Below are positions 8,644 through 57,022 of a stretch of 64,000 bases of DNA, piece after piece. The number at the start of each line of letters is the position of its first letter. The stretch's first letter is position 1. The notes under the pieces are model-generated. The model searched no databases and had not been told where the DNA came from. It was given only the letters and a program-made list of their open reading frames with translations. Position numbers and translations under genes: made by a program. This DNA comes from Candidatus Parcubacteria bacterium (GTDB taxonomy: Bacteria > Patescibacteriota > Minisyncoccia > UBA6257 > HR35): contig AP024681.1 in assembly GCA_025999335.1 (NCBI GenBank), positions 459,547 to 523,546 on the forward strand. Direction: 5' to 3'.

Positions 8644-8653
8644 AGGTAATTTA

Positions 8654-9937: not shown

Positions 9938-9981
9938 TTTTTTAAAACAATAAAATAATATGCTAAAATAATTAAAAGAAG

Positions 9982-11061: not shown

Positions 11062-11069
11062 TTTAAAAA

Positions 11070-20929: not shown

Positions 20930-20994
20930 AATATAATTATAAGTTTAGAGTTTATGATTTATATTAAATTTTTCGTTATTGATCTTTAATTTAT

Positions 20995-21519
20995 ATGCCA
21001 GACATTAGCACTAATATAAAAAATATTATTCCTGTGGGTTTAGTATTTCCTTTTTTGTTGATTTTAATCATAGAATTCGGTATTGATATGGGTTTACAGT
21101 CTTACAATAGTAAGTTAGAGAATACTAAAAATAGCTTAATTAACGAAATTAAAGATATTAAGAATAAATCCGGCGATGAAATAAATAAAAGACCTGAATT
21201 TAATTTCTTCTCGCGGTTCGTTAATGTCGCTACCTTGATTAAAGAAAGAAAAAGAATTAAAGATGTTATTGATTCTTTTAATAGAATAATGCCTACTTTT
21301 GTTGATATAAGCAATTTTAATTACGATGCTGAAAAGCAACAGATAACCTTTCAAGCATCGGTATCTAATTGGAGAGATTATGTTAGGCTTTATAAATATT
21401 TATATAGTCAAAATAAAATTCGAGTTGAATCATTTTCATTGCCAACAGGCGATGAAGCCACAGGAAAAATAAATTTTTCAATTGCGATTATTTTAAACAG
21501 TAATTTTTTTGAAAAGTAA
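20995..21519 (+). CDS. pilN: PilN-like pilus assembly protein
   Basis: 174 aa, bitopic with a single TM near the N-terminus, located immediately after pilM. Confidence 0.5.
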   Translation: MPDISTNIKNIIPVGLVFPFLLILIIEFGIDMGLQSYNSKLENTKNSLINEIKDIKNKSGDEINKRPEFNFFSRFVNVATLIKERKRIKDVIDSFNRIMPTFVDISNFNYDAEKQQITFQASVSNWRDYVRLYKYLYSQNKIRVESFSLPTGDEATGKINFSIAIILNSNFFEK

Positions 21520-21521
21520 TA

Positions 21522-22064
21522 ATGGGACTTATATTTAAACTTTTGCCAATTTTGCTTATCGTAGCTGTTTTATATGTTTTAATGTATAATCTTATTCCTA
21601 CTTTTAAAACGACAATTAATTTAGCCAACGAACTTAAAAAATTAGAAGCTGAAAAAAAGAGTTTGAAAGTAGCTGAAGAATTTGTTAATTCTTTGTCAGC
21701 AAAAATTCCTATTCAAAGTACTAACATCCAGGAATTTCAGAAAAGTTTATTAAAATTTTTACCCGCTGATCCTTTGGAAGAAGAATTAATTTATCAATTA
21801 TATGTTTATCACAAGGATTTTGGTTATAAATTTTCAGGTTTGAGCATTGGCAAAGGAGGTGAAAAATCATTAAATGATCAAATTTTACCAGTGAAAACAT
21901 TAACTTTTTCTTTATCTTTGAAAGATGATTTGGACAAGATCGTTAAATTTATTTCTACTTTGGAAGAAAATGTGCGTATTTTATCAATAAAAAATTTTAA
22001 TGTTGATCGTAATGGCAATGCAAGTTTTAACGTCGAAGCTTATTTTATGCCTTTGGCATATTAA
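21522..22064 (+). CDS. pilO: PilO-like pilus assembly protein
   Basis: 180 aa with an N-terminal TM and a coiled coil (ANELKKLEAEKKSLKVAEEF), in the canonical position after pilN. Confidence 0.5.
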   Translation: MGLIFKLLPILLIVAVLYVLMYNLIPTFKTTINLANELKKLEAEKKSLKVAEEFVNSLSAKIPIQSTNIQEFQKSLLKFLPADPLEEELIYQLYVYHKDFGYKFSGLSIGKGGEKSLNDQILPVKTLTFSLSLKDDLDKIVKFISTLEENVRILSIKNFNVDRNGNASFNVEAYFMPLAY

Positions 22065-22070
22065 AAGCGA

Positions 22071-22577
22071 ATGAATAAAAGTTTTTTAACCATCATAATT
22101 AATTCTCTATTTTTAGTAATGTTGCTGATAGGTGTTTTTTACTTTCTTTTTGTTAGATTTGTAAAAAGTATTCCTGATATGGAAGTGCCTCCTGAATTAT
22201 CTTTTGTTAATAGAAAAGCTACTTTTTTTCAAGAATACACAAAATCTAATGATTGGACGAATACAATAGAGACATTACAAAAATCACTTGGTATTTCTTT
22301 TAAATTACTTGCTGATTTAGATAATAAAAATTTTTTCGCTATTAGTTCTAATGAATTAACTAGGACATCTTTATTTACTAAAAATATTCAATTACCGCCT
22401 CCAACATTAACAACTTCATTACCACCTCAGTCAGACAACCAGCCAACACCATCAACGACTTCGACGGCAACTTCAACACCAACTTCAACGACTACAACAT
22501 CGACAGCGACTTCAACTAATTTTCCTACAACAACAAAGGTTAGCACATCTTCTAAAAGTAATGCTCCGAAAAGATAA
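22071..22577 (+). CDS. Membrane-anchored protein with a Ser/Thr/Pro-rich tail, encoded within the pilus operon (possibly a PilP analogue)
   Basis: 168 aa with an N-terminal TM. The C-terminus is PTPSTTSTATSTPTSTTTTSTATST. Confidence 0.5.
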   Translation: MNKSFLTIIINSLFLVMLLIGVFYFLFVRFVKSIPDMEVPPELSFVNRKATFFQEYTKSNDWTNTIETLQKSLGISFKLLADLDNKNFFAISSNELTRTSLFTKNIQLPPPTLTTSLPPQSDNQPTPSTTSTATSTPTSTTTTSTATSTNFPTTTKVSTSSKSNAPKR

Positions 22578-22676
22578 GATTAATTCAAATGATAAAATTA
22601 ACATTGATTAATCATTATTTATTCTTATAAAATAAATAAGAGCGTTAGTGAATAGCAAATTATTAAAATTTTTAAA

Positions 22677-24383
22677 ATGAAAGACGAACAAATAATAAAT
22701 TTTTTTTCAAGCAAATACCCAGAAATTAATAATTGGCTTATTGATGCAAAAATTAATAACATTTCTTTTGAAGATTATATTTTTAATAAAAGCCTTATTC
22801 CAATTGAAGAATTTTTAAATTTTAAAGCGTCAATTTACAATTTACCTATCAAGGTTTTTCAAGTTGACGAAACAATCCCTAAAGATATTTTAAATAAGAT
22901 ACCCGAAGCAGTAGCTCGTAACTATAAAATTTTAGCTTTGGAATTAAGAAATAATGTTTTGTACATTGGTGTTGTTGATCCAGAAGTGCCTGATTTGCAT
23001 AATAAAGTTTTAGAACCATTAAAAAATAATTTAAAATTAGAACCTCAATTAGTATTAATTTCCGTTAAAGACTTCTATTTACATTTAGAAGATTATTCTG
23101 ATTTTGAAAATGAAATGAAAAAATATGTTTTAGATTTTCGAAGTAGTAGTGGACGTAAGCTTGACACCGATAAACCTTTAGCTTTTCAACAGGAAGTTAT
23201 TAGTAGCGAAGAAGGTCCTATTATTAGATTGTTTGAGTTGTTAGTTAGAAAAGCTGTTGCTATTCGAGCTTCAGATATACATTTAGAACCTTTACCGGAT
23301 AAAGCGCGTATTCGTTTTCGTTTGTTTGGTGATTTAAAAACTATAGCTTATTTTCCTAAAGATGTTCATAATCCTTTAGTTAACAGAGTTAAAATTTTAA
23401 CCAATTTAAGATTAGACGAAACAAGAGTTACGCAAGATGGACGTTTTCGAGCGGTTGTTCATGGAAGAGAAATTGATTTTCGTGTTGGTATTTTGCCAAC
23501 TATTAACGGAGAAAAAGTTGCCATAAGAATTTTAGACCCCTTGGTTGGTCTTAAAAAGATTAAAGATTTAGGGTTAGCTGATTATCATATAGATATGATG
23601 TTAAGAAATATTTCTAAAACATTTGGAATGATTCTAGTTACCGGTCCAACTGGTTCAGGAAAAACAACAACTTTATACGCTTTAATTCAAGAAATTAATA
23701 ACGATAAAATTAATATTATTAGTTTGGAAGACCCTGTTGAATATAAAGTTTTTGGCATTAACCAATCACAAATTAGACCTGAAATTGGTTATTCTTTTGC
23801 TAAAGGTTTACGGGAAATTTTAAGACAGGATCCTGATGCTATTTTGGTTGGTGAGATTCGCGATGAAGAAACAGCTGAATTAGCTACTCATGCTGCTTTA
23901 ACAGGACATATAGTTTTTTCAACTTTGCATACTAATACTGCCCCAGGAGCGATACCTCGTTTGATAGATATGGGGGTCAAGAATTATTTTTTGCCATCAA
24001 CTTTAAATTTAGTTATTGCTCAACGATTAGTTAGAGATTTATGTCAAAATTGTTTAGTTGAAAAATCCTGTCCTAAAGAAATTATTAGCGAAGCTGAAAA
24101 AGCCTTACAAGATTTACCTGATAATTTGCGTAATTTTGAAATTAAATGTTTTGACGCTAAAGGTTGCGATAAATGTCACAATCGTGGTTATATAGGTAGA
24201 ATAGGTATTTTTGAAATGTTTGAAATGACGAAAGAGCTTTCTGATATAATATTAGAACATAAAGGAGAGGGTGAGATTTTAGAGATTTTAAAAAAGCAAA
24301 ATTTTATTTCTTTACGAGCTGATGGTATAATTAAAGCGAGTAAAGGATTGGTTTCTTTAGAAGAAGTATTTAAAGTTACTTAA
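22677..24383 (+). CDS. pilB: Type IV pilus assembly ATPase PilB (GspE family)
   Basis: 568 aa. It has the Walker A motif VTGPTGSGKTTTLYA, Asp/His boxes and the tetracysteine motif CQNC…CDKC typical of PilB/GspE. Confidence 0.85.
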   Translation: MKDEQIINFFSSKYPEINNWLIDAKINNISFEDYIFNKSLIPIEEFLNFKASIYNLPIKVFQVDETIPKDILNKIPEAVARNYKILALELRNNVLYIGVVDPEVPDLHNKVLEPLKNNLKLEPQLVLISVKDFYLHLEDYSDFENEMKKYVLDFRSSSGRKLDTDKPLAFQQEVISSEEGPIIRLFELLVRKAVAIRASDIHLEPLPDKARIRFRLFGDLKTIAYFPKDVHNPLVNRVKILTNLRLDETRVTQDGRFRAVVHGREIDFRVGILPTINGEKVAIRILDPLVGLKKIKDLGLADYHIDMMLRNISKTFGMILVTGPTGSGKTTTLYALIQEINNDKINIISLEDPVEYKVFGINQSQIRPEIGYSFAKGLREILRQDPDAILVGEIRDEETAELATHAALTGHIVFSTLHTNTAPGAIPRLIDMGVKNYFLPSTLNLVIAQRLVRDLCQNCLVEKSCPKEIISEAEKALQDLPDNLRNFEIKCFDAKGCDKCHNRGYIGRIGIFEMFEMTKELSDIILEHKGEGEILEILKKQNFISLRADGIIKASKGLVSLEEVFKVT

Positions 24384-24393
24384 TTTAAAATTT

Positions 24394-25455
24394 ATGGATC
24401 AAAGATTAAAAGATTATTTACTTTTTGTAGCTCAACAAGGAGGTTCTGACTTGCATATCTTGCCGGGAAGTTTTCCGGTAATGAGAAAAGACGGGGATCT
24501 TTTTCCGATGACGCAATTTGATATTATTAGCGGCGAAGAAAGTAAAAAAATGTTATTTTCTTTGCTTAACAATGACACTGAAGAAAAATTAAAAACTTTT
24601 AAAGATGTTGATTTTTCTTTTTCTCTTGACGAAAAAGTACGATTTCGAGTAAACATTTATTTGCAAGCCAATGGTTATGCCGGTGCTTTTAGATTTATAC
24701 CCAATGAAATGAAGAGTATTGAAGAATTGAATTTGCCTGTTATTTTAAATGAATTTATTGAAAGAAGACAAGGATTTATTTTGTTAACCGGACCCGCGGG
24801 TACTGGTAAATCAACTACTTTAGCTTCATTGATAGATACTATTAATCACCAAAGACAAGACCACATTATTACCATTGAAGAGCCAATTGAGTATTTATTT
24901 GTTTCTGATAAAGCTGTTATTTCTCAAAGAGAAATTCCTACTCATGCACCTGATTGGCATAGAGCTTTGAAAGGAGCTTTGCGTCAAGATCCCGATGTAT
25001 TGATGATTGGTGAATTGAGAGATGCCGAGTCTATTTCTATTGCTTTAACCGCAGCGGAAACAGGACACTTAGTTTTAGCAACAATGCATACTAACTCCGC
25101 AGCACAAACAGTTGATCGTATAGTTGATGTTTTGCCAGAAAATCAAAAAAACCAAGGAAGGTTACAGCTAGCTTCGACTTTAATAGGTATTGTCTCTCAG
25201 AGATTAGTACCTCGTATTAAAGGAGGTCGTATTCCTGCTTGTGAAGTGCTAATAGCTAATAATGCAGTCAGAAACTTGATTCGTGAAAATAAAATATACC
25301 AAATAGATAGTGTTATCGATACAAGTTTAAGCGAAGGAATGTTTTCTTTAGAGCGTTCTTTAGTTAATTTAATTCAAATGGATGAGATTACTTTAGAAAA
25401 AGCGATTGAATATAGTCTCAAGCCAAGCAAGTTGAAGTATTTATTAGAAGAATGA
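24394..25455 (+). CDS. pilT: Twitching-motility retraction ATPase PilT
   Basis: 353 aa. It has LLTGPAGTGKSTTLASLID and the PilT-type motif GHLVLATMHTNSAAQTVDRIVDV. Confidence 0.85.
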   Translation: MDQRLKDYLLFVAQQGGSDLHILPGSFPVMRKDGDLFPMTQFDIISGEESKKMLFSLLNNDTEEKLKTFKDVDFSFSLDEKVRFRVNIYLQANGYAGAFRFIPNEMKSIEELNLPVILNEFIERRQGFILLTGPAGTGKSTTLASLIDTINHQRQDHIITIEEPIEYLFVSDKAVISQREIPTHAPDWHRALKGALRQDPDVLMIGELRDAESISIALTAAETGHLVLATMHTNSAAQTVDRIVDVLPENQKNQGRLQLASTLIGIVSQRLVPRIKGGRIPACEVLIANNAVRNLIRENKIYQIDSVIDTSLSEGMFSLERSLVNLIQMDEITLEKAIEYSLKPSKLKYLLEE

Positions 25456-25495
25456 TATTTTGTAATAAATTATTAAATTATCTACTTAACAATAG

Positions 25496-26698
25496 ATGAA
25501 ATTTGAATTCAAAGCTTTTACTCAAGATGGTAAATTAAAAGAGGGTATTATTACTGCCAACGATAAAGATGCTGCCATTAAATTATTGCAAGATCAAGGT
25601 TTGTTGGTAACATATTTACAAGAGAAAAAAATTTCTTTGCTGTTTTTATTTAGAAAGCCTGGCTTAAACGATTTGTATCTTTTTACAAAACAGTTATCTT
25701 ATCTTTTAAAAGCTCGTACTCCTTTAGATGAGGCTATTAAAACATTATCGCAGTCTAATGCTAATCCTATTTTTAAATCTATCTTAATAGAGATTTATAA
25801 TGATCTAGTTGCGGGCGTAACTTTTTCTCAATCGTTATCAAGATTTCCTGAAATTTTTAATTCTTATTATGTTGGTATGGTTATTGTTGGCGAATCAGTT
25901 GGTACTTTAGATGAAATTTTAGATTATTTAGCTAATCACTTAAATGCTCAAAGAAGATTTAAAAGTAGGTTATTGCAAGCAGCTATTTATCCAATCGTAG
26001 TTGTTTCTTTGTTTATTGGCGTAATGATTGCTTTATTTTATTTTGTTATTCCGCAGATAACTAAATTATTTACTGACAATGGCATTCCTTTGCCTGGGGT
26101 TACTAAATTGTTTCAATCAATTTCTGATTTTATAATAAACTTCGGATTGTTTTTGTTGATTATTTTTGGTTTTATGATTTATTATTTTGTTCAGTATGTG
26201 CAAACAAGAGAAGGTAGAGCAGCATTGTTTAGAATTAGCAACGGTTTGCCGATTTTTGGTAGTTTAATTAAAAATTTGTATACAGCTCAATTTTTAGAAT
26301 CTCTTTTTTATCTTTTAAAAGGTGGCGTGCCTATTGTTGAGTCTTTGCAAATTATTAAAACAAGCATTAACCATCCTTTATACGAAGATGTTTTAGAAGT
26401 TATTATCGAAGATGTAAAAAAGGGAATGCCATTAAGTCAGAGTTTAAGCAATTTTCCTGATCTATTTCCTAATTTAGTTATTGAAGGTATGAGAACTTCA
26501 GAGAAAACAGGACAGTTAGCTGAAGTGACTCTTACAATATACGGTTTTTATAACGAGGCTATTGAAGCTCAAGTAGCTGGTTTAGCAGAAAGCTTACAAC
26601 CAATTTTAATTATCTTTTTAGGTGCGGGTTTAGGTATTCTTGAAGCTTCCTTATTAATTCCTCTTTTGGAATTGACAAAATATGTTCAAACTTTTTAA
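25496..26698 (+). CDS. pilC: Type IV pilus inner-membrane platform protein PilC (GspF family)
   Basis: 400 aa with two GspF-like repeats and 3–4 TM segments. Confidence 0.8.
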   Translation: MKFEFKAFTQDGKLKEGIITANDKDAAIKLLQDQGLLVTYLQEKKISLLFLFRKPGLNDLYLFTKQLSYLLKARTPLDEAIKTLSQSNANPIFKSILIEIYNDLVAGVTFSQSLSRFPEIFNSYYVGMVIVGESVGTLDEILDYLANHLNAQRRFKSRLLQAAIYPIVVVSLFIGVMIALFYFVIPQITKLFTDNGIPLPGVTKLFQSISDFIINFGLFLLIIFGFMIYYFVQYVQTREGRAALFRISNGLPIFGSLIKNLYTAQFLESLFYLLKGGVPIVESLQIIKTSINHPLYEDVLEVIIEDVKKGMPLSQSLSNFPDLFPNLVIEGMRTSEKTGQLAEVTLTIYGFYNEAIEAQVAGLAESLQPILIIFLGAGLGILEASLLIPLLELTKYVQTF

Positions 26699-27542
26699 TG
26701 ATGTTTTTTTCTTTGTTTTTGGGCTTTTTTGGGGATCTTTTTTGAATAATGTAGCTTTACGTTTGGAAAGTGGTGAAGATTTTTTATATTCTCGCTCTAA
26801 ATGTCCTGCTTGTCAAAAGAATTTACGCTGGTATGAATTAATTCCTATTTTAAGTTTTATTATTCAAAAAGGTAAATGTCGGCATTGTTCTAAAAAGATT
26901 TCTTGGCGTTATCCTTTGATTGAAATTCTTACAGGTTTATGGGTTATGCTGTTAACTAAAAATATTCTTGGCTATAGTTTAAATTATTTTTTTCTTGTAG
27001 AGTTTATTTTTTATTTTTTATTTTTAAGTATTATTTTTGTTTTGGGTTTATACGATTGGCGAACCTTTCTTGTTGATGATCGTTTTGTGATTGTTGGCGG
27101 TATTGTGGGTTTAATATTTAATATTTGGCATAAATTTTTTAATATTCCTTATAGAGATTTTACGGATTTATATTTGTTAAATAATTATTTTTATTCTTTA
27201 TTTTTTTCTAATAGTATTTTTGATTTTTTAATATCGCCTTTATTGATGTTTTTTTTGTTTTTGCTGATTTATTTATTAAGTAAAGGACAAGGTCTAGGCT
27301 TTGGTGATGTTAAGATTATTTTTGTTATCGGTTTATTTTTAAGATTAGGAGATATTTTGCTGATGTTGATTGTTAGTTCTTTTTTAGGTTTTTTATATGG
27401 ATTAGGGATTATTATAAAATATAAAAATTTTAAGCAACCAATACCTTTTGTGCCTTTTTTCTTTTTAGGTATAATTTTAATTATATTTTTTGGTAAATAT
27501 TTATCTCAATTCTATTTGAATACTTTACATCTATCTTTGTAG
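26682..27542 (+). CDS. pilD: Prepilin peptidase (A24 family)
   Basis: 286 aa. It has the N-terminal CPAC…CRHC zinc motif, a polytopic membrane topology and a GFGDVK motif. Confidence 0.8.
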   Translation: MFKLFNDVFFFVFGLFWGSFLNNVALRLESGEDFLYSRSKCPACQKNLRWYELIPILSFIIQKGKCRHCSKKISWRYPLIEILTGLWVMLLTKNILGYSLNYFFLVEFIFYFLFLSIIFVLGLYDWRTFLVDDRFVIVGGIVGLIFNIWHKFFNIPYRDFTDLYLLNNYFYSLFFSNSIFDFLISPLLMFFLFLLIYLLSKGQGLGFGDVKIIFVIGLFLRLGDILLMLIVSSFLGFLYGLGIIIKYKNFKQPIPFVPFFFLGIILIIFFGKYLSQFYLNTLHLSL

Positions 27543-30258: not shown

Positions 30259-31704
30259 TTGCCAATGGATTTAATTAAAGATATATACGAAAAAGATTAC
30301 AAACAATTTTTCACGAAACATACGCCACCGCAAAAATTTTTTCTAAAATCACCATTATCGTCAATTGTTGCTTTTGCTAAAGCACCAGTTATTTCGATAA
30401 TGATTTTTTTAGCAGTTTTTTTTAATGTTGTTGCGGCGCCATTGCAGAATCCTAAAAATACTTCAACACAGCCATTAGTTTATTTAGATCCCGAAAAGCA
30501 AAAAGCTAAAGAAGAATTAGAAAACGAGTTACAAAAAGTTTTAAAACAAATTGATAATTACAAAAAAACTATTTCAGGCATTGTTAGAGAAAAAAATTCT
30601 ATTAAACGTGATATTAATTTAACTGAAGCAAATATTCAAAAAATTTCTTTGGAAATAAAAGCGATTAATTTAAGTCTTCAAAAATTAAAAACAAAAATTA
30701 ACGATACTCAGAAATCAATAGCTTTAACTGAAAATAAAATTAGTCGTTCGCAAGAAATTTTAGCTTCGTCTTTAAGATCTTATTATAAATTAAGACAGAG
30801 AAATATTGTTGAAGTATTTTTAGCTGAAATTCAAGTATCTGATTATTTTAATAATTTCTTTTATTTACAAAAATTACAAGAACAAATTAATGATGAATTG
30901 CGTAGCTTAAAAGATTTAAATATTAAATTGAGTAATCAAAAAGAAAGCCTTGAAGAACAATTTGGAGAACAAAATGGTTTATTATCTTTATCAAAAATCA
31001 AATATAGTGAACTTCAGGATTTGAAAAATAAAAAACAAGCTTTATTAGCTCAAGCAAGCAAAAAAGAAACCCAATATAATGCTTTATTAAGACAAGCCGA
31101 AAAGACAGCAGCTGAAATTAGAGAACAGATTTATCGTTTAGCTGGTGGTGTTGGGCCAATTACTTTTGGCCAAGCTTATGATCTTGCTAAAATAGCCGAA
31201 AAGCACACAGGCATTAGACCAGCGTTTTTGTTAGCTATTTTGCACTATGAATCTAAAATAGGTCAAAATGTTGGTAATTGTAATTATAAAGATGCTATGA
31301 AACCAAGTGAACAGCCAATATTTGAGAAAATTGTAAAAGAATTAGGATTAGATCCTAATAAAATGGTTGTTTCTTGTAAGCCGTGGTATGGTTGGGGCGG
31401 AGCAATGGGTCCGGCACAATTTATACCGTCAACATGGATGGCATACAAAGATAAAGTTGCTGCTATTACTGGCAATAAACCTCCTTCTCCTTGGAATAAT
31501 TTAGATGCTTTTATTGCTGCCGCTTTACTTTTGACTAATAACGGCGCTGATGCGCGCACTTATGAGGCTGAATGGAAAGCGGCAATGATGTATTTTGCTG
31601 GTTCTAATTGGAACAAACCTTCTTTAAGTTTTTATGGCGATGATGTAATGGCTATTGCTTCTCGTTTTGAAAAGGATATTCAAATTTTAGAGAAAAAGAA
31701 TTAA
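30259..31704 (+). CDS. Membrane-anchored coiled-coil protein with a C-terminal lytic transglycosylase (SLT-like) domain
   Basis: 481 aa. It has an N-terminal TM, ~250 aa of coiled coil and a C-terminal domain with the Glu-Ser context (ILHYESKIGQ) and GAMGPAQFIPSTW, resembling the GLMQ…PxT SLT motif. Confidence 0.6.
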   Translation: MPMDLIKDIYEKDYKQFFTKHTPPQKFFLKSPLSSIVAFAKAPVISIMIFLAVFFNVVAAPLQNPKNTSTQPLVYLDPEKQKAKEELENELQKVLKQIDNYKKTISGIVREKNSIKRDINLTEANIQKISLEIKAINLSLQKLKTKINDTQKSIALTENKISRSQEILASSLRSYYKLRQRNIVEVFLAEIQVSDYFNNFFYLQKLQEQINDELRSLKDLNIKLSNQKESLEEQFGEQNGLLSLSKIKYSELQDLKNKKQALLAQASKKETQYNALLRQAEKTAAEIREQIYRLAGGVGPITFGQAYDLAKIAEKHTGIRPAFLLAILHYESKIGQNVGNCNYKDAMKPSEQPIFEKIVKELGLDPNKMVVSCKPWYGWGGAMGPAQFIPSTWMAYKDKVAAITGNKPPSPWNNLDAFIAAALLLTNNGADARTYEAEWKAAMMYFAGSNWNKPSLSFYGDDVMAIASRFEKDIQILEKKN

Positions 31705-33340
31705 AACTCGCCATTGACCATAATTGAGCTATAGTACCTTCGCTTCTTCGCTCTTTGGCGCTGCTAATTTCGCTACTAAAACCTAAAGCACCGTCTTTTA
31801 ATAAATCATCTAAACTACTTAAGTAAATTTTTTCTATAATCTCTTTATATTTGATTATATTAATTTCACATAAAGAAATAGCTAAAAGGTTATTAAGAAA
31901 ATACCAGGAATTACCTCTATGATAAGCGCTATTTTTTTCTCCATCGTCTTCGTTTTGGAAATGAGGATTGTCAGTATTTAAAGTGGCCAACCCTCCCCAT
32001 AATAAATAATTATTTTTAAGTAATTTATCAAATACTTGGGTCCAGGTTTCTTGGGGAAGAATGTATTTTGTAAATAAAAAAGCGAAGATAATATTTGGAT
32101 CATTATCGCGGTTTATAATTTTTTTCTTTAATTCATTTTCTCTAACCTCTAGCTCGGCTTTTAATCTAATTTTTACTAATTCATCTATATTTTTTAAAGA
32201 TATTAATTTATTTAAAGCATTGACATATAAAGATTCAATTTCAATAGCTTCTTGACGGTTTAAAGTATCCATCCAGGTGCTATAAGATGGTAAATGAATA
32301 ACATTATTTTTCATAAATTTCTTTTGCCATAGTTTAAAGCAAGCAATTATTCTTTCTGCATTGTTTTCTAATAACTTTTGTTCAGCTGTGGCTATAAAGA
32401 GTAATAAAGTATCCGCTCCATCCCATTGCCATTGTTGATATTGACTATTGACAGGTTTGTTTTTATCCCAAATGGTTTCTAAATTATTAAGATAAAAATT
32501 TAATTTTTGTTTATAAATATTTTTATCTATATTTTCTTTTAAAAGATACAAACTTAGTAGTTCATCTCGATACCAGTGTTCATAAAACCAAGGAAAGCCA
32601 GCAGCAAAATATTGATTTGTTTCAAAAAGCATTATTCTTTTTACTAAAAAATTATTTAAAGGTGATTGATTTTGATGACTAGGATTGTGATTAAGTATAA
32701 ATATAGAATTTTGGTGATCAGTTTTTTCATTAGGATTAAAATCTTGACTGTCGTTAGGGAGAAGATTTATTTTTAATTCGCGAATTTTTCCTTCAAAACA
32801 TTCATATGTCCACCATTCGTAAGGATAAGAATTACGTTTTTTATCAAAATTCATATCTTGCTTAACCCACTGTTTTTTTATTTGAACATTAGAATCTGTT
32901 TCTATTAAAAGTTGATTGATTAATTGATCATTAAAATATTGTTTAACAAAAATATGATTTACTTTTGGTGTTTCAACAATGATATTGCGGGCAAAGGCAT
33001 TATTGTTAAATATATATTTACTGTCCAAATTAAGTTTAACATTAGTCCAATATGAGAAAATTAAGTGAATACTTTTTTCTTCTAATTTTAGATAACAATG
33101 ATTATGCCAGAATTCAATGATAATTTCATTAGGGTTCAAAATAATTATATTTTTTATTTTTTCGCCGAATTCAATATTATCTAAAAATCTAAAAGCTTGT
33201 CCGTCTTTTAAAATAAAACCACCAAAATATCTACTTCTTTTTTCCTGCGAGAGGATTAACCAGACATCATTGTTCTTTAAAAATAAAATATCACTCTCAG
33301 TTTCTTTTTCTATATTTAACTCTAAGTATTTGACTTTCAT
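31652..33340 (-). CDS. GDE_C-family glycoside hydrolase (amylo-alpha-1,6-glucosidase / glucoamylase-like six-hairpin glycosidase)
   Basis: 562 aa. AAGFPWFYEHWYRDELLS matches the aGyhWF-x-WGRD motif of the debranching-enzyme C-terminal domain. It overlaps the convergent 30259..31704 gene by 53 bp. Confidence 0.6.
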   Translation of the reverse strand: MKVKYLELNIEKETESDILFLKNNDVWLILSQEKRSRYFGGFILKDGQAFRFLDNIEFGEKIKNIIILNPNEIIIEFWHNHCYLKLEEKSIHLIFSYWTNVKLNLDSKYIFNNNAFARNIIVETPKVNHIFVKQYFNDQLINQLLIETDSNVQIKKQWVKQDMNFDKKRNSYPYEWWTYECFEGKIRELKINLLPNDSQDFNPNEKTDHQNSIFILNHNPSHQNQSPLNNFLVKRIMLFETNQYFAAGFPWFYEHWYRDELLSLYLLKENIDKNIYKQKLNFYLNNLETIWDKNKPVNSQYQQWQWDGADTLLLFIATAEQKLLENNAERIIACFKLWQKKFMKNNVIHLPSYSTWMDTLNRQEAIEIESLYVNALNKLISLKNIDELVKIRLKAELEVRENELKKKIINRDNDPNIIFAFLFTKYILPQETWTQVFDKLLKNNYLLWGGLATLNTDNPHFQNEDDGEKNSAYHRGNSWYFLNNLLAISLCEINIIKYKEIIEKIYLSSLDDLLKDGALGFSSEISSAKERRSEGTIAQLWSMASFNSFSLKFEYPFQNEKQ

Positions 33341-33367
33341 TATAATGAATTTATATCTAAAAAATTT

Positions 33368-35128
33368 TTATAGTAGTTTGTAATAAAGAGCTATATAATG
33401 ATTGATTAGTTTACTCCAGTCACAAATATTAGCTAATTTTTTTGCTTCGTATTTATTGTGGATTCTTTCAATGCGCGACATATTGACAATTTTTAATAAT
33501 AAATTGTAAAGATCATTAACAATATCTTCACGTTGTTTGCTATAACGTTGTAGGATGTATAAGCCTTTTTGATTATTCATATCAATATGCTTATGTTCTT
33601 GCAGGTAACTAGCAAAACCGGTAAGATCAGTGGTAATAGCAATTGTTCCGGCGGCTAAAGTTTCTAAAGGAGTATAACCCCATGGTTCGTATAATGAAGG
33701 GAAGATTCCTAAATGACAACCATTGATAACATTATAATAATCTAAATTAATTAAGCTATCAGCGGCGTGAGCATAGATAGGATAAAAAATAATTTTTACT
33801 TTATCTTCTTGACGATTTAATAAATTTGCTGCTTGGCATAATTTAATTATTTCATTATCATTGTTAAAGATATGTGTTGATAAAGGCGCAGACATTGGCA
33901 ATGGTTTTTTGATAATATTTAATATTTGATAAATATCTATCATTTCTTCTTGACTGAAAATGAATTCAGGTTGTTGTTGATGAATCAATGAATGCAAAAT
34001 ACGTGATTTTATTTCTTCAGTTAAATTATCTATGTATTCTTCTAAACTTCGATAACTTAAAATATGTTGCATTATTTGTGGATTAATGCTATTGAATTCA
34101 TCAGGAATCATTAGAATCATATAAACATTTTTATCTATATCTTTTGCTTTCATTTCATTGTTTAATTTACCTAAAGCTTCAATAGTGATATCAAATCCTT
34201 TGTTAGTTATTTCCTTTCTTCCGCTGGTAAAGAATATAAGAGAATTTTTAATAGGACAACTTTTTGTAAAATAAGGCGTAAAGTAATATAAAATAAACTC
34301 TAAAAGTTGATATTTATTGCGACGATGAAGAAAAGCTATTTCTTCAAAAGTAGGGAAGCGATTAATATCAATGCCGTTAGGTAAAATCGCATCGACTTCT
34401 CGGTTTAATAATTTTGCTACTTCTTTGGCGGTAATATTACTAATGGTAGTTAGCAAGGTTGCTTGTTGAGCGGCATTTTTTTCAACGCCATACTTTGCTT
34501 CTATAAAAAAATCATAAGCGCTTTGTTGAGGGTTAATATCTATGTCCCAAAAATTAATATTATTAGCCATTAAAGTTCTGCCTAAAATAGTAGCATGAGT
34601 TGTAAAAATTGTTTTTAAATGATAACCTTCAGCTTTTAAAAATAAAATAGCACCTCCGCTTAACCATTCATGAAAATGAAAAATAGAATCATTAAAACGA
34701 TTAGCGGCTAATTCTTTTATAAAATCACTAACAGCTTTAGACCAAGCTATAGGTTCGTCGTAATCTTTGCCAGTTCTTAAACTGTCAATTTGAAATTTTT
34801 CCCACAGTATGTGTTTTAAGACATTAACATTTTCTAAATATCTACTAAAATCTATTAGAAAACCGTTGATCTGCCCTTCAATTATCCATTCGCCATAATA
34901 AACATTAATGCCTTTTTGTTTTAAATTGTCGATGATTAACGCAAATTGACTAGGAGGATTAGAGATTTTAAATTCTACTTCACTTTTGTTGGCAATATAA
35001 GGACCAATAACTAAATAATTATCCTGATAATGATTTTTTAAATACTTAGCTTTACTTTTAAGAACTGTATGAATGCCGCCAACTTTATTAGCTATCTCCC
35101 AGCTAATTTCGAAAATATACTTTGACAT
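33368..35128 (-). CDS. Glycogen synthase, GT3 (eukaryotic/archaeal-type)
   Basis: 586 aa. The N-terminus IFEISWEIANKVGGIHTVLKSKAKY closely matches the GT3 glycogen synthase start (FEVSWEVANKVGGIYTV). Confidence 0.75.
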   Translation of the reverse strand: MSKYIFEISWEIANKVGGIHTVLKSKAKYLKNHYQDNYLVIGPYIANKSEVEFKISNPPSQFALIIDNLKQKGINVYYGEWIIEGQINGFLIDFSRYLENVNVLKHILWEKFQIDSLRTGKDYDEPIAWSKAVSDFIKELAANRFNDSIFHFHEWLSGGAILFLKAEGYHLKTIFTTHATILGRTLMANNINFWDIDINPQQSAYDFFIEAKYGVEKNAAQQATLLTTISNITAKEVAKLLNREVDAILPNGIDINRFPTFEEIAFLHRRNKYQLLEFILYYFTPYFTKSCPIKNSLIFFTSGRKEITNKGFDITIEALGKLNNEMKAKDIDKNVYMILMIPDEFNSINPQIMQHILSYRSLEEYIDNLTEEIKSRILHSLIHQQQPEFIFSQEEMIDIYQILNIIKKPLPMSAPLSTHIFNNDNEIIKLCQAANLLNRQEDKVKIIFYPIYAHAADSLINLDYYNVINGCHLGIFPSLYEPWGYTPLETLAAGTIAITTDLTGFASYLQEHKHIDMNNQKGLYILQRYSKQREDIVNDLYNLLLKIVNMSRIERIHNKYEAKKLANICDWSKLINHYIALYYKLL

Positions 35129-36293
35129 TTGGTTTAATTCTTAATTTAAAATCTTCAATAATATTTCTAAAATTTAAATAAGCATCATAAGGAGTTTCAT
35201 AAGGATTAAAGTATTTATGCACATCACCATCGGCAAACCATTTTGTACACATATAATAAAAATGATCAGCTATTTGTAATTTTCGCCAAACATTTTTAAG
35301 ATAAAAAGGGACTTCTTTTTCTAGAGAAAATAAAAGTTGGGCGCATTCTTTTTGCATTTCATTACCAAGCCACGCAGTAAGATCTCTTTCAGTATCTGCC
35401 CAGGTAATTGGTTTTTCACTAGAAAAAATTCCTTTACTTGAATATGTTTTAATAGCTTCTGAAGGCAAAAGAAAATTAAGATGTTTTTTTCTTAAAATTG
35501 CTCGCGGTAATTCAGCGAGAAAATCAAAAATTCCAGTTTCTTGCCATTGATGTTCGCCAAAAGTTTCAAAATCCATAAATAAATTAATAACTTCGCCGTT
35601 GCCATTATAATTTTCTAGCCATTGAGCAAATTTGTCAGCAGTGAGGGGCCATTCTTCCCACCATTGCGCTGAAAAGCGAAAACTTATGTCATCAGATAGT
35701 TGATAATTTCTTAAGAGGATTTTTAAATTGTTAGACGGATCATTGTAGACGAAATTTGGCGAGCGCCATTCGAGAATCCAAGGCACACCTTCGGTGATCA
35801 TACCTTCAAAGCCTAAGTCTTTAACGATTTTGGTTAAGTCATCAAAATATATTAATTCAGTGTTAGCAAAAACAGAACTTTCTTGATTAAATAATTGCTT
35901 GATAATTTTTTTATGCAATATTACTTGTTCTTTAAACTCTTTAAGAGAAAACAGACTTGATAGTGAATGATAATATGTTTCGCCGACGAATTCAACATTT
36001 TTACTCTTACTTAATTCTTGAAACATTTTTATTATTTCCGGATGCCATTTTAGGAGTTGCTCAATGAGATTTCCAGTTAAGCCAAAACTAACTTTGAAAG
36101 GCAGTTTATCCTTAATAATTAATTTTATTAAAAGTTCTAAAGCTGGTTTATAACATTTATGAACAATTCTATCAAGATAAAATTTATTCATTTTATCATC
36201 AAAATAATTTTTATCTTGAGCAATATCAAAAAAGGTATAATGTTTAAGGCGATCTGGTTGGTGTGTTTTAAAATAAAAAACAACTGAAGGCAT
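35103..36293 (-). CDS. Glycoside hydrolase family 57 protein (alpha-amylase or branching enzyme)
   Basis: 396 aa. The N-terminus is FYFKTHQPDRL (GH57 HQP-R motif). Region GMITEGVPWILEW contains the likely nucleophile Glu. Confidence 0.7.
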   Translation of the reverse strand: MPSVVFYFKTHQPDRLKHYTFFDIAQDKNYFDDKMNKFYLDRIVHKCYKPALELLIKLIIKDKLPFKVSFGLTGNLIEQLLKWHPEIIKMFQELSKSKNVEFVGETYYHSLSSLFSLKEFKEQVILHKKIIKQLFNQESSVFANTELIYFDDLTKIVKDLGFEGMITEGVPWILEWRSPNFVYNDPSNNLKILLRNYQLSDDISFRFSAQWWEEWPLTADKFAQWLENYNGNGEVINLFMDFETFGEHQWQETGIFDFLAELPRAILRKKHLNFLLPSEAIKTYSSKGIFSSEKPITWADTERDLTAWLGNEMQKECAQLLFSLEKEVPFYLKNVWRKLQIADHFYYMCTKWFADGDVHKYFNPYETPYDAYLNFRNIIEDFKLRIKPNVKVYFRN

Positions 36294-37456
36294 TATTTAA
36301 TAATTTTATAATAAATATTATTTATTTGATTAGCAGTTTTCTGCCAACAAAATTTTTTTTGAGCTTCTGCTTTGCAATTATTTAAATAAGTTTTTTTTAA
36401 TGTTTCGTAATTTAAAATGCCTAATATTTTATTAGCCATTTCTTTAATATCCCAAAAATCAAAGCGAAGAATATTATTTAAATAATAGCCCATTCCGGTT
36501 GTTTTTGAAATAACAGGAGCTAAATTATTATTTAAAGCTTCTAAAGGAACTAAACCAAAAGGATCATTAACTGAAGGCATAACCAAAACATCGGCATTTT
36601 GATAAACTCCCCATAATTTTTCTTCTCGTAGAAAGTTAGCAAAGGAGATATATTTTTCAACTTTTAACTCATAAGCTAATTTAACTAATTGAGGAAACAT
36701 ATCGCCTGAACCAACAAAAACAAATTTTGTTTTAGGTTGTTTGTTGATTATCATTGGTATGGCACGAATAAGATAATCAGGTCCTTTTTGAATAGTTAGC
36801 CTACCAACGAAAAGAACTATTTTCCATCCATCTTTTTTTAGTTCCGCTAAGTAGTTGGGCATTTCGCCTTTATTCTCTGACCAAAAAAATCCATTGGGAA
36901 CAACAAATATTTTTTCCGGTTTTATTTTGTAGTCATCGATTAAAACATTTTTAGTTAAATCGCTAACAGGCAATAAGTAATCAACTTTTTGAAAATATTT
37001 TTTTTCTATATCAAAGATAAATTGATTAGGATTTTCATTGGTTCTTTCTATTTCTGTGGAATGAACATGAACCAAAGAAGGTGTGCGATAATGTTTGCTT
37101 AATGAATAAACAGCCGGTGCTGTAAACCAATCGTGCCCATGGACAATAGTTGGTTTTGTCTTATAATTTAAAAGGATTCTTTTATGGTAACCAAAAATTA
37201 AATCAAGTATTTGACTATTAAAATAAAAATTTTTATGAAAATAACTTTCTAATCTTTTAGGTTTTGATTGATTATTATTACTAGGAATAGCAAATAAGAC
37301 TTTAAAAGGAGGAGAGGTAATATTTAATTTAATTGGTAAAGTGAAAGTTAAATCTTCAACTAATTGGCTTAGTTCTTTTGCTAAATAAAAGCAGGCAACG
37401 CCTAAACCACCGCTATTAAAAGGCGGTAATTCCCAGCCAATCATTAGAACTTTCAT
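36293..37456 (-). CDS. GT-B glycosyltransferase (GT4/GT5 alpha-glucan synthase-like)
   Basis: 387 aa. The N-terminus IGWELPPFNSGGLGVACFYLAKEL resembles the glycogen-synthase GGL motif. The C-terminus has the GT4 motif DPFGLVPLEALNNNLAPV. Confidence 0.65.
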   Translation of the reverse strand: MKVLMIGWELPPFNSGGLGVACFYLAKELSQLVEDLTFTLPIKLNITSPPFKVLFAIPSNNNQSKPKRLESYFHKNFYFNSQILDLIFGYHKRILLNYKTKPTIVHGHDWFTAPAVYSLSKHYRTPSLVHVHSTEIERTNENPNQFIFDIEKKYFQKVDYLLPVSDLTKNVLIDDYKIKPEKIFVVPNGFFWSENKGEMPNYLAELKKDGWKIVLFVGRLTIQKGPDYLIRAIPMIINKQPKTKFVFVGSGDMFPQLVKLAYELKVEKYISFANFLREEKLWGVYQNADVLVMPSVNDPFGLVPLEALNNNLAPVISKTTGMGYYLNNILRFDFWDIKEMANKILGILNYETLKKTYLNNCKAEAQKKFCWQKTANQINNIYYKIIK

Positions 37457-37471
37457 TATAATTACATTTTA

Positions 37472-38398
37472 CTACAAATTTTCTATAAATTTTTTGCTTA
37501 TCACATATAAATCACGTTTATTTTTAAAATAATACACTTCCGGTATTTTGTTTAATTCTTTTATTTGCCTTTTGGCAAAATTTTTTATATCCTGGAGACA
37601 ACGATTGTAGATAAAATTTGTATCAGCATAGATATTATTTTTGTTTTGATTAGAAACATATAACCCGAACCACCGATATTCCAAGCCAAAATTGATAATT
37701 CGTTTAAAAGATAATCCTAAAGTTTTTAATTTTTTTACTTCTTTGATGATAAATGGGAGTCTTTGTTTTAGTCTAATTTCTATTTTATGAAATAAATTTT
37801 TTTTATCTATTTGCGGACAAAGAATTAAGATTTGGTATTTAGGTTTTTTAATTAAAGGTGGCACTTTGCCTAAAACATAGATTATTTCTAAAGCTCGAAT
37901 TAATCTTTTTTTGTTATGACGATCTATAGTTTTAGCTCGCAGTTTATCTAATTGTTGTAGCTTTTTATATAAATCTTCAGATGATAGTTGAGATAATTTT
38001 TTTCTGAGGTTGTAATTTGGCTTAACAGCCGGCAAAAGCCAACCTTCTTTTAGAGCTTTTAAATACAATATTGTTCCACCACAGAAAATAGGTATTTTAT
38101 TTTTTTGCATTATTTTTTTTACAGCTGCTTCCGCTGCTTTGAGCCATTGTCCAAGAGAATAATTTTTACGTGGTGAAGCGACGTCAATAAGATGATGGGG
38201 TACAATTTTTAATTCTTGTTTTGATAATTTACCGCTACCTATATTAAGATATTTATAAACTTGCCTTGAGTCAGCATTAATGATTTCACCATTTATTTTT
38301 TGCGCTAAATAGATGGCATTTTCTGATTTGCCTATAGCTGTTGGTCCAGTAATAAAGATTATTTTTTTTAATTGATTGTTTGGGGACTTATTGACCAT
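37472..38398 (-). CDS. miaA: tRNA dimethylallyltransferase
   Basis: 308 aa. It has the P-loop IIFITGPTAIGKSENAIYLA and INADSRQVYKYLNIGSGK. Confidence 0.8.
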   Translation of the reverse strand: MVNKSPNNQLKKIIFITGPTAIGKSENAIYLAQKINGEIINADSRQVYKYLNIGSGKLSKQELKIVPHHLIDVASPRKNYSLGQWLKAAEAAVKKIMQKNKIPIFCGGTILYLKALKEGWLLPAVKPNYNLRKKLSQLSSEDLYKKLQQLDKLRAKTIDRHNKKRLIRALEIIYVLGKVPPLIKKPKYQILILCPQIDKKNLFHKIEIRLKQRLPFIIKEVKKLKTLGLSFKRIINFGLEYRWFGLYVSNQNKNNIYADTNFIYNRCLQDIKNFAKRQIKELNKIPEVYYFKNKRDLYVISKKFIENL

Positions 38399-38421
38399 TT
38401 TTTATTATCCACATTTTTAAT

Positions 38422-38451
38422 TTGACGTAATAATATTTTATATGTTAAAAT
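38422..38451 (+). promoter_or_regulatory. Sigma-70-like promoter for the pilin gene (-35 TTGACG, extended -10 TGtTAAAAT)
   Basis: TTGACG lies at 38422–38427 and tgttaaaat at 38443–38451, about 35 bp upstream of the pilin ATG. Confidence 0.45.
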
Positions 38452-38485
38452 TAATTTAACTAAAATTAAGTTTCAATTTATTTAA

Positions 38486-39106
38486 ATGAAAAAAGAAATA
38501 TCAACCAACAGGGGATTTACTTTAATTGAATTATTAATAGTTCTTGCTCTTATTTCTATTTTAGCCGCTATTTTAATTGTGGTTATCAATCCGACGGAAA
38601 TTTTTAAAAAGAGTCGCGATGCTAAAAGAGTTGGCGATTTGAAAAATGTAGCTCAAGCTATTCAGGCTGCTTTAACCGATAAACCCAATTTAGGCTTAGG
38701 TCGTAATGGCAATACTGAATGCATAGGAGGGAGTCAGCCAACAATATTTTCTTCACAATATATATCAGGAACCAGCAGTTTTGCTACTTTTACAGCGGTA
38801 ACCGGGAGTCCTTCACAAGCTATTGATGGCACTGGATGGATCCCTGTTAATCTAACTAATGTTGCTATAGCTAATTTATCTTCTTATCCAATTGATCCTG
38901 TCAATAGAACAACTACACCTGCCTATTATTATACTTATGCTTGTGATGCCCAGAAAGGTTTTTTTGAAATTGATGCTCGTATGGAATCTAATGTTGACGC
39001 TCATACTACTGACGGCGGAGATAATCCTTTATTATACGAAGAAGGTTCAGGTAAAAAAGGCATCTTACCAACTGCGACAGGAACTAATTTTTATCAGAAC
39101 TATTAA
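38486..39106 (+). CDS. Type IV pilin (class III signal peptide, N-terminal methylation motif)
   Basis: 206 aa. MKKEISTNRG|FTLIELLIVLALISILAAI has a Gly at −1, Phe at +1 and Glu at +5. The mature domain has paired Cys residues. Confidence 0.85.
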   Translation: MKKEISTNRGFTLIELLIVLALISILAAILIVVINPTEIFKKSRDAKRVGDLKNVAQAIQAALTDKPNLGLGRNGNTECIGGSQPTIFSSQYISGTSSFATFTAVTGSPSQAIDGTGWIPVNLTNVAIANLSSYPIDPVNRTTTPAYYYTYACDAQKGFFEIDARMESNVDAHTTDGGDNPLLYEEGSGKKGILPTATGTNFYQNY

Positions 39107-40124
39107 AAATTAGTTTACGAAAACCGTTTAGAAATTCTTTACCACTCATAATTTTTCGATTTTCTAATTGAACTTTTTGAAGAATAATATAAGCATCTTT
39201 TAGTTTTAAGCAGAGATTGTTTTTGAAAGTGAAAAATTGTCCAGTTTGGGTTTTATCTTTAATATCTTTTTTTAAGAAGTTGTCAGGTAATTTTTCAATG
39301 CTAAATATTTTTAAGATTTTATCATTAATTTTTATAAAAGTTCCGGGCCAAGGGTTATAAGCGCGTATTTTTTTGTTCCAAATTTCAAAGTCGTCAGTTA
39401 AATTTAAAAACCCATCGTCTTTTTTAAGTTTTTTTGTATAAGTTGCTAAATCATCATTTTGTTTTTTAAGTTCGATATCTTTGTAGAGATAATTTTCTAT
39501 AATTTCAGTTAAAGTTTTACCTCCCAAAATTCCAAGTTCTAACTCTAATTCTTCATAGGTGATATTTGCTTTAAGTTTATATTTTTCTTGTACGATTATT
39601 GGTCCGTGATCTATAAGTTCGTCAATTTTGAAGATAGTTATCCCTGATTCATTATCGCCTTGTAAAATTGTTTCTCTTAAAGGATTAGGACCACGGTATT
39701 TAGGTAATAACGAAGGATGAACATTAATTATTCCTTTAGGAAAAAGATCAATGATATTTTTAGGAATTATTTTTGAAAAAGCGGCTACAATACCAGCAAG
39801 AGGTTGTATTTGATTAATAATTAACTTAATATTTTGCCATTGCTCGGTGTTGGCATTGTGATGATTATTTTTGTTATTAAAAGTTGTTTGTTTGTTTTGT
39901 TGTTGATTTTGATGGTTTTGGCTGGTATTTGGTAATTCAATAACTTCTAATTTATGTTGAAGGCAAAAACTATAAACTTCATTTAATTTTATTTTTAACC
40001 CCCTACCAGCAGGTTTAGCTTGATTAGTGATAATTAAAAGAGGTTTGTATTTTTTAATAAATTCTTTTAAAACATAAACAGAAAAACGACTTGAACCAAA
40101 GAAAAATACAGGTAAATTTTTCAT
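39084..40124 (-). CDS. fmt: Methionyl-tRNA formyltransferase with an inserted Gln/Asn-rich low-complexity segment
   Basis: 346 aa. It has FFGSSRFSV and the formyltransferase core INVHPSLLPKYRGPNPL. The insert NTSQNHQNQQQNKQTTFNNKNNHHNANTEQ lies between the N-terminal lobe and the core. Confidence 0.75.
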   Translation of the reverse strand: MKNLPVFFFGSSRFSVYVLKEFIKKYKPLLIITNQAKPAGRGLKIKLNEVYSFCLQHKLEVIELPNTSQNHQNQQQNKQTTFNNKNNHHNANTEQWQNIKLIINQIQPLAGIVAAFSKIIPKNIIDLFPKGIINVHPSLLPKYRGPNPLRETILQGDNESGITIFKIDELIDHGPIIVQEKYKLKANITYEELELELGILGGKTLTEIIENYLYKDIELKKQNDDLATYTKKLKKDDGFLNLTDDFEIWNKKIRAYNPWPGTFIKINDKILKIFSIEKLPDNFLKKDIKDKTQTGQFFTFKNNLCLKLKDAYIILQKVQLENRKIMSGKEFLNGFRKLIFNSSDKN

Positions 40125-53948: not shown

Positions 53949-53962
53949 TTAGTTTATAACTA

Positions 53963-57020: not shown

Positions 57021-57022
57021 TT

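Follow-up and report, generated by a model that had tools for sequence, protein, structure and literature searches.

What does a bacterium of the candidate division Parcubacteria do with two glycogen synthase-like genes placed next to those of two glycosidases? The question is raised by four genes in a 64-kb stretch of Candidatus Parcubacteria DNA (contig AP024681.1; this whole stretch of 64,000 nucleotides is hereafter called the window). In the order of transcription they encode a GT4-type glycosyltransferase (open reading frame (ORF) 4), a GH57 glycosidase (ORF3), a GT3 glycogen synthase (ORF2) and a divergent glycosidase of the type found in the C-terminal part of the glycogen debranching enzyme (GDE_C; ORF1). 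We regard it as quite likely that the four genes make up a module for the synthesis and turnover of a cytoplasmic alpha-glucan of the glycogen type, common to bacteria of the Candidate Phyla Radiation (CPR) and DPANN archaea. An alpha-glucan operon had been proposed in an earlier note made from the sequence alone, and this reading is now supported by the conserved synteny of the genes and by the related loci, which add PGM, GH15, a GalT-family gene or a fused GT35 phosphorylase. The cluster adds a further member, from bacteria, to a kind of gene cluster that is known and widespread though biochemically unexplored.

In the proposed pathway, the GT3 enzyme would extend alpha-1,4-glucan chains from a nucleoside diphosphate (NDP)-glucose donor, and analogy suggests UDP-glucose. 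The GT4 enzyme would be a second alpha-1,4-glucosyltransferase, and it may start the chains for GT3, since no glycogenin is evident (no glycogenin-type GT8 gene was seen in Pfam scans of the window). The GH57 enzyme, of the alpha-amylase/4-alpha-glucanotransferase type, would cut or rearrange alpha-1,4 chains and ORF1 would strip alpha-1,6-linked glucose stubs during mobilisation; between them the two enzymes would debranch indirectly, much as the eukaryotic debranching enzyme does. The NDP-glucose supply and the branching step appear not to be encoded in the window. Approximately 5.8 kb of the approximately 680-kb contig is given to glucan storage, which suggests that a buffer of energy is of importance to such ultra-small cells, which probably depend on a host.

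Enzymes of the module

The ORF2 protein matched the Pfam family Glycogen_syn (PF05693) at 2.3e-123 (413.5 bits, cut-off 27) over residues 7-579, corresponding to profile positions 1-576 of 639. It also aligned end-to-end with the solved glycogen synthases of human (GYS1; 1.8e-96, residues 4-581 against 28-608), Caenorhabditis elegans (2e-94) and yeast (Gsy2p; 3e-94), the E values for the solved enzymes ranging from 1.8e-96 to 9e-93. The catalytic motifs K-x-G-G, G-R-x5-K-G and E-x7-E are all present (K15, G17-G18, R304, K310, E481, E489). The position of K15 is occupied by Lys in 52 of the 55 CPR/DPANN GT3 sequences, and the other catalytic positions are invariant or nearly so. The GT3 family call of the earlier note therefore holds, also in the very alignment that could have overturned it. 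The N-terminus, described there as nearly identical to the eukaryotic motif, is better said to be equal to it at 13 of 17 positions (FEISWEIANKVGGIHTV against human FEVAWEVANKVGGIYTV). The Lys of K-V-G-G at position 15 is shared with human GYS1, while Gln is found in 28 of the 29 GT3 sequences sampled from other bacteria, mostly Planctomycetota and Bacteroidota.

The designation of this synthase as eukaryote-type is appropriate at the family level and does not extend beyond it. It shares 30.8% identity with human GYS1, and a neighbor-joining tree placed it inside a CPR/DPANN clade and not beside the eukaryotes, with the CPR sequences in two separate groups; the tree is rough, having no bootstrap values and one eukaryote only, and its topology is indicative. 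Among the prokaryotic sequences sampled, a homologue from Planctomycetota, with 47.5% identity, is closer to human GYS1 than those of CPR. A recent transfer of the gene from a eukaryote was rejected on the low identity to GYS1 and on the tree, in which the sequence groups with DPANN/CPR and those of Planctomycetota and Bdellovibrionota are nearer to human.

To compare the regulatory sites, the glucose 6-phosphate (Glc6P) contacts of the human enzyme (PMC9287172) were mapped onto an alignment of 85 GT3 sequences. Most residues of the phosphate site are kept in the window protein, K559 included, the human to window pairs being H297 and H268, K301 and K272, H501 and H472, R579 and R552, and R582 and R555; at the position of human R586, 52 of the 55 CPR/DPANN sequences have Lys. 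Conservation does not extend to the phospho-sensing arginines R580, R588 and R591, and both phosphorylation tails are absent, since the protein starts at the equivalent of human residue 28 and stops at that of residue 608 of 737. In the tails and the arginine cluster, as well as in having no glycogenin evident, the window thus differs from the eukaryotic GYS1/Gsy2p systems, which its GT3 resembles in full-length alignment, in the three catalytic motifs and in most of the phosphate site. Because the phosphate-site residues are kept while the phospho-sensing arginines and the tails are missing, the enzyme is probably controlled by Glc6P binding rather than by phosphorylation. Among the Glc6P contacts named in the text of PMC9287172 is "His287"; in the numbering of PDB 8cvx, position 287 of human GYS1 is occupied by Phe, and the conserved His equivalent to H268 of the window is human H297.

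The ORF4 protein has three Pfam assignments, Glycos_transf_1 (1.8e-28), Glyco_transf_4 (1.2e-15) and Glyco_transf_5 (5.2e-12), the last of which corresponds to a starch synthase-type N-domain and scored 46.4 bits (cut-off 22.7). Its best match among PDB sequences was Pyrococcus abyssi GlgA (7.6e-20), followed by MshA and GlgM. It fell under the cut-off of every NCBIfam GlgA/GlgM model (99.7 against 302 bits for TIGR02149 and 82.8 against 328 bits for TIGR02095); between GlgA and GlgM the model scores and PDB matches point both ways. The retaining GT-B motifs are found in the GG loop (G16-G17), R219 and K224, which are invariant in 32 homologues, and in D298-x7-E, where position 298 is Glu in 28 and Asp in 4 of the 32. 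Judged by its motifs and domains, ORF4 encodes a retaining GT-B glucosyltransferase resembling archaeal GlgA, in agreement with the second GT-B alpha-glucan synthase-like gene of the GT4/5 kind that had been described at this position.

For the ORF3 protein the earlier note had left a choice between branching enzyme and amylase. Membership in family GH57 was confirmed with PF03065 (5.9e-78, 262.6 bits), and published fingerprints place the protein with the amylase type. E146 and D241, which do not vary among 26 sequences, were aligned by the family profile to the regions around E123 and D214 in PDB 1k1w, the Thermococcus litoralis 4-alpha-glucanotransferase; these are the nucleophile and proton-donor regions of that enzyme, respectively. 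As a single sequence the protein had no match among PDB sequences. The best fold match of its AlphaFold2 model (predicted local distance difference test score, pLDDT, 87) was the same T. litoralis enzyme (2.6e-16), with Aquifex aeolicus amylopullulanase and GH57 branching enzymes next, all fold matches having 12-16% identity. By the fingerprints that Martinovicova and Janecek defined (PMC6037648), the protein falls into the alpha-amylase (AAMY) subfamily, as it shows Thr at logo position 23, YY at positions 35-36 and no Trp at position 12 (segments FMDFETFGEH, ADHFYY and (R/A)NTELI), and its 396 residues are near the subfamily average of about 414. In length, catalytic Glu/Asp, Thr 23 and YY 35-36 it agrees with the Methanocaldococcus jannaschii alpha-amylase type, and it differs in having Ala at position 12 (Arg in most of its own family) and no Glu/Gln at position 1. 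A single member of this subfamily has ever been characterised (PMC6037648), and the reaction in vivo is therefore uncertain.

The branching enzyme half of that choice was rejected. GH57 branching enzymes are recognised by HxHLP in the first and ELF(Y)GHW in the fourth conserved sequence region (CSR-I and CSR-IV; PMC11206854), as well as by Leu at position 23 and a length of about 520-550 residues (PMC11206854, PMC6037648). In the window protein the two motifs are replaced by THQPD and ETFGEH and the Leu by Thr, and the chain is too short. Since these fingerprints disfavour branching, no branching enzyme is identified. Of the four proteins GH57 is the best conserved, with 75% identity within the clade and approximately 49% to the DPANN homologues.

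ORF1 had been described as a GDE_C amylo-1,6-glucosidase-like hydrolase, and for this protein the family assignment was upheld through its relatives and not by a match of its own. No Pfam family, PF06202 (GDE_C) included, was matched by ORF1 itself even at an E value of 10, and there was no NCBIfam match either. Of its 75 homologues besides its own cluster representative, most of them from Patescibacteria, nearly all have a precomputed GDE_C match, and among the 25 that were aligned 23 matched PF06202 directly (best 2e-29). When the profile of the ORF1 family was compared by hhalign with a canonical GDE_C profile, built from the second GDE of the window, the segment of PDB 7vma covered by the alignment and two GDE_C proteins encoded at related loci, the match had a probability of 99.7% and an E value of 7e-26 over 318 columns. 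The AlphaFold2 model (pLDDT 87.4, predicted template modeling score 0.89) consists of an N-terminal beta-sandwich (strands in 1-194), which has no Pfam match, and a C-terminal (alpha/alpha)6 barrel (helices in 227-553), and Foldseek aligned it with GH94/GH63/GH116-type barrels and with Candida glabrata GDE at 2.4e-6. Motifs kept in the family are AGFPWF..RD, W-M-D358, E367, H474..W479 and Q539-W541, and the invariant D358 of W-M-D aligns with W-K-D of the canonical barrel. By such family-level evidence ORF1 is a divergent GDE_C-type (GH133-like) glycosidase.

The second GDE_C protein of the window, encoded outside the operon on the plus strand, was reported in the earlier note as a paralog of ORF1. 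It is the canonical one of the two, with GDE_C (1.1e-11) and MGH1-like_GH (5e-13) matches both over the cut-offs and a match of 6.8e-66 to the archaeal-type GDE 7vma_A over residues 227-573 of 620; the two proteins are barely similar to each other (BLASTP E value 0.036). It comprises the catalytic barrel only, the usual N-terminal domain being missing or replaced, and it is likely an additional alpha-glucan hydrolase. The 594-aa ORF that ends 1 nt into its start was considered as the lost N-domain, but this has no support, as neither Pfam nor PDB similarity was found.

Recurrence in other genomes and relation to known glycogen systems

The gene order GT4-GH57-GT3-GDE is repeated together with the flanking genes in three other Parcubacteria loci (L002, L003 and L006). 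The GT3 protein has relatives in no fewer than 598 stretches from the genomes of GTDB species, among them stretches from Patescibacteria, many DPANN archaea, Planctomycetota, Bacteroidota and Bdellovibrionota. Partner genes were counted at the fetched GT3 loci, and the counts are lower bounds, many contigs being short. Among 13 CPR loci besides the window, GT4 is present at 8, GH57 at 9 and an ORF1-type GDE at 11, with all three at 8. At the 42 loci of DPANN and other archaea the corresponding numbers are 27, 29 and 16, and at the 30 loci of other bacteria they are 2, 2 and 0. In the relatives GT4 is always directly upstream of GH57, and the two form an adjacent pair in every locus with both genes scored complete. 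As the same gene set recurs beside GT3 in dozens of independent genomes, the clustering is not due to chance.

Several related loci carry further genes of glycogen metabolism. In a Syntrophaceae contig (L086) the genes for GDE, GT4 and GH57 are followed directly by a GT3::GT35 fusion, and an archaeal-type contig (L087) contains a GalT-like gene, GT4, GH57::DUF5752, GT3, GDE_C, PGM, PGK and GAPDH. Woesearchaeota loci (L005) add GH15. In total DUF5752 accompanies GT3 at 25 loci, a GalT-like gene at 15, PGM at 6-7 and GH15 at 7, and none of these is found in the window. The L086 fusion (positions 8226-12455) is a protein of 1409 aa joining a GT3 glycogen synthase to a GT35 phosphorylase. The DUF5752 proteins, of approximately 100 aa, adjoin or are fused to GH57 in many DPANN and some CPR clusters (for example L005, 4154-4780; L087, 7001-8479); neither the window nor its nearest relatives have them. 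The GalT-family (GalP_UDP_transf) gene lies mostly directly downstream of GT3 (L010, L018, L024, L026, L039, L045, L087 and others), and it could provide the NDP-glucose-forming or -phosphorolysing step of the GT3 clusters.

The closest known counterparts are the glycogen gene sets of DPANN archaea (Woesearchaeota, Ca. Nanohalobium constans), which have the same four families, the adjacent GT4-GH57 pair and a GDE_C-type gene after GT3. The mean identities between the window and DPANN proteins are approximately 38% for GT3, 49% for GH57, 33% for GT4 and 28% for GDE. The window differs in being bacterial, in having all four genes in one compact co-directional unit, and in having none of the DUF5752, GalT-like, PGM and GH15 genes that are frequent in the archaeal clusters. 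Glycogen storage has been called a hallmark of DPANN (PMC7443923), and for CPR genomes a metabolism of glycogen has been mentioned in passing. A 2024 review (PMC11046441) lists GT3 in DPANN, Euryarchaeota, bacteria of the PVC (Planctomycetes, Verrucomicrobia and Chlamydiae) group and Bacteroidetes, and GT4+GH57+GH133 clusters in archaea, and does not mention Patescibacteria. Our literature search gave no paper joining GT3 with the Candidate Phyla Radiation, and for Parcubacteria together with "glycogen synthase" only a passing mention.

With the classical glgBXCAP operon the window shares the purpose, the synthesis and mobilisation of alpha-glucan, and differs in having no GT5 GlgA by the model cut-offs, no GlgC, no GH13 GlgB/GlgX and no GT35 GlgP. 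Pfam scans of the window, together with Pfam tables precomputed for loci L001 and L088, gave no NTP_transferase (glgC/galU), PGM, GH13 or GT35 match among the window ORFs of at least 110 aa, save the ORF at 52763-53113 and two antisense ORFs within larger genes that were unscanned. The lack of glgC, glgB (GH13) and glgP stated in the earlier note is thus true within these 64 kb of the approximately 680-kb contig. With the eukaryotic GDE (GH133 domain) and the archaeal-type 7vma, ORF1 shares the (alpha/alpha)6 barrel and the GDE_C motifs, the putative W-x-D acid motif among them, and in its pairing with a 4-alpha-glucanotransferase-related GH57 enzyme recalls the transferase-plus-glucosidase logic of eukaryotic GDE (PMC11046441). 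It differs in that the transferase part would be GH57 and not GH13, and in that ORF1 has no sequence match to a solved GDE. Two hallmarks of the glycogen metabolism of eukaryotes, GT3 and a GH133-type enzyme, thus show genetic linkage in prokaryotes, which bears on the origin of the eukaryotic pathway and does not overturn current views.

Alternative readings of the cluster

Several points weigh against a storage-glucan module. NDP-glucose pyrophosphorylase, PGM, branching enzyme and phosphorylase are missing from the window. With a GH57 enzyme lacking the branching fingerprints, a branched product, and hence the need for debranching, is in doubt. Neither for the CPR/DPANN clade of GT3 nor for its partner genes has any enzyme been biochemically characterised. 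No match among PDB sequences, 7vma and the solved GDEs included, was obtained with ORF1, its family profile or its Woesearchaeal counterpart; as the last of these, encoded after GT3, also misses 7vma, the GT3-linked GDE proteins appear to form a GDE_C clade of their own. The general base of ORF1 would be either the invariant E524 or D512, depending on the alignment (the human pair is D1261/E1502). Furthermore, GlgA-like enzymes of family GT4 can be maltose-1-phosphate or oligoglucan synthases and not glycogen synthases (PMC4981310), and hydrolases homologous to those of the module were found in the secretome of Ca. Nanohalobium (PMC7443923).

The archaeal GT3 enzymes are uncharacterised, and the questions of the primer and of the role of GT4 are open (PMC11046441). 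It is conceivable, if on the whole doubtful, that the GT4-GH57 pair itself supplies the missing functions, a self-priming GT4 enzyme making the primer and GH57 acting in vivo as the chain-transfer or branching enzyme. CPR and DPANN would in that case run the "eukaryotic" GT3 + GH133 pathway without glycogenin and without GH13, and it would be clear how the GT3 synthases of prokaryotes are primed. More generally, the compact and widespread CPR/DPANN module offers a handle on the donor and primer of prokaryotic GT3, the role of the GT4 partner and the type of reaction catalysed by GH57.

Alternatively, the cluster may have two products, GT3 making the polymer and GT4-GH57 making maltose-1-phosphate (as GlgM does), short oligoglucans (as mycobacterial Rv3032) or a glucosylated small molecule. 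We think this rather improbable. The GT4 protein aligned in full length with the GlgM-type model TIGR02149 (2e-28, residues 1-386 of 391, below the cut-off) and matched the GlgM structure 6tvp at 3.5e-13; GT4 members account for about a third of "GlgA" homologues, the mycobacterial GT4 GlgA being GlgM and Rv3032 making oligomeric glucans (PMC4981310). The pair is inseparable wherever both genes were scored complete, and in Woesearchaeota it is transcribed divergently from GT3-GDE. The best structural relative of GT4 by sequence is, however, a genuine glycogen synthase, that of P. abyssi; no GlgE (GH13) is found in the window, and the pair is nearly always located beside GT3 in CPR/DPANN, which suggests a shared pathway.

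There is little probability that GH57 and ORF1 serve mainly to degrade starch or glycogen from outside, be it of the host or the environment, for a sugar-fermenting episymbiont, synthesis being secondary. A precedent exists in Ca. Nanohalobium, whose secretome contains GDE, alpha-amylase and GH15 and whose co-culture grew on starch and glycogen (PMC7443923), and nanohaloarchaeal loci L048, L052 and L057 hold GT3 + GT4 + GH57, the first and the last of them also an ORF1-type GDE. Against this, GH57 and ORF1 have no signal peptide or hydrophobic segment, residues 11-13 (HQP) of GH57 already belong to the catalytic barrel and leave no room for a leader, and the two genes overlap or abut the two synthase genes in one transcription unit. 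In none of the four proteins was an N-terminal or internal hydrophobic segment found (maximum 19-residue Kyte-Doolittle mean at or below 1.18), and all four are therefore probably cytoplasmic. Finally, that GT3 glucosylates another acceptor (a cell-envelope glycan, a glycolipid or a protein) and not a storage polymer has next to no probability, for although the clade is uncharacterised and the window contains a surface-glycan cluster, that cluster is 16 kb off on the other strand, the likeness to glycogen synthases is full-length with the Glc6P site included, all partners are of families acting on alpha-glucans, and the Syntrophaceae homologue is fused to glycogen phosphorylase.

Genomic setting

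The four co-directional minus-strand genes were reported in the earlier note in exact agreement with the ORF listing (Table 1). The GT4 and GH57 genes overlap by 1 nt (36293) and the GH57 and GT3 reading frames by 26 nt (35103-35128), and the spacing between GT3 and ORF1 is 27 nt. The gene miaA is located on the same strand 15 nt upstream of the cluster, and the 3' end of ORF1 is overlapped by a convergent gene resembling lytic transglycosylase. Promoter and terminator scans of positions 31000-39200 were at background (55 against 44.6 ± 7.1 and 5 against 4.0 ± 2.2, respectively). The G+C content of the window is approximately 28%. The GT3, GH57 and ORF1 proteins are identical to BCX15589-BCX15591 of Candidatus Parcubacteria bacterium KatS3mg097 (680,436-bp contig), and the public record already has names for the GT3 and GH57 products.

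Table 1. Positions of the module and of other features in the 64-kb window
Feature	Coordinates	Strand	Remarks
Kelch-repeat protein	11070-14318	plus	1082 aa
PolX-type polymerase	14269-16029	plus	pol-beta domains and PHP
Type IV pilus genes	19889-27542		PilM, two T2SSE ATPases, T2SSF, prepilin peptidase
ORF1, divergent GDE_C-type (GH133-like) glycosidase	31652-33340	minus	562 aa; BCX15589.1, record name "hypothetical protein"
ORF2, GT3	33368-35128	minus	586 aa; BCX15590.1, record name "glycosyl transferase"
ORF3, GH57	35103-36293	minus	396 aa; BCX15591.1, record name "alpha-amylase"
ORF4, GT4	36293-37456	minus	387 aa; first gene of the module
miaA	37472-38398	minus	
Pilin gene	38486-39106		between miaA and fmt
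ORF preceding the second GDE	47618-49402	plus	594 aa
Second GDE, canonical archaeal-type catalytic barrel	49402-50562	plus	386 aa; outside the operon
Unscanned ORF	52763-53113		
Surface-glycan cluster	53148-61059	plus	eight co-directional genes
GtrA-like gene	61049-61456	minus	
GT2 gene	61435-63576	minus	713 aa

A set of type IV pilus genes precedes the glucan cluster in the numbering of the window, a pilin gene lies just upstream of the cluster, and this entire neighbourhood keeps its synteny in the Parcubacteria locus L003. The plus-strand surface-glycan genes encode a CmcI-like methyltransferase, two FkbM methyltransferases, three group-1/GT4 transferases, one Glyco_trans_1_2 protein and one GT2 protein, and the GtrA-like and large GT2 genes of the same cluster follow on the minus strand. 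Near the beginning of the window the gene for a Kelch-repeat protein is followed on the same strand by that of a PolX-type polymerase.

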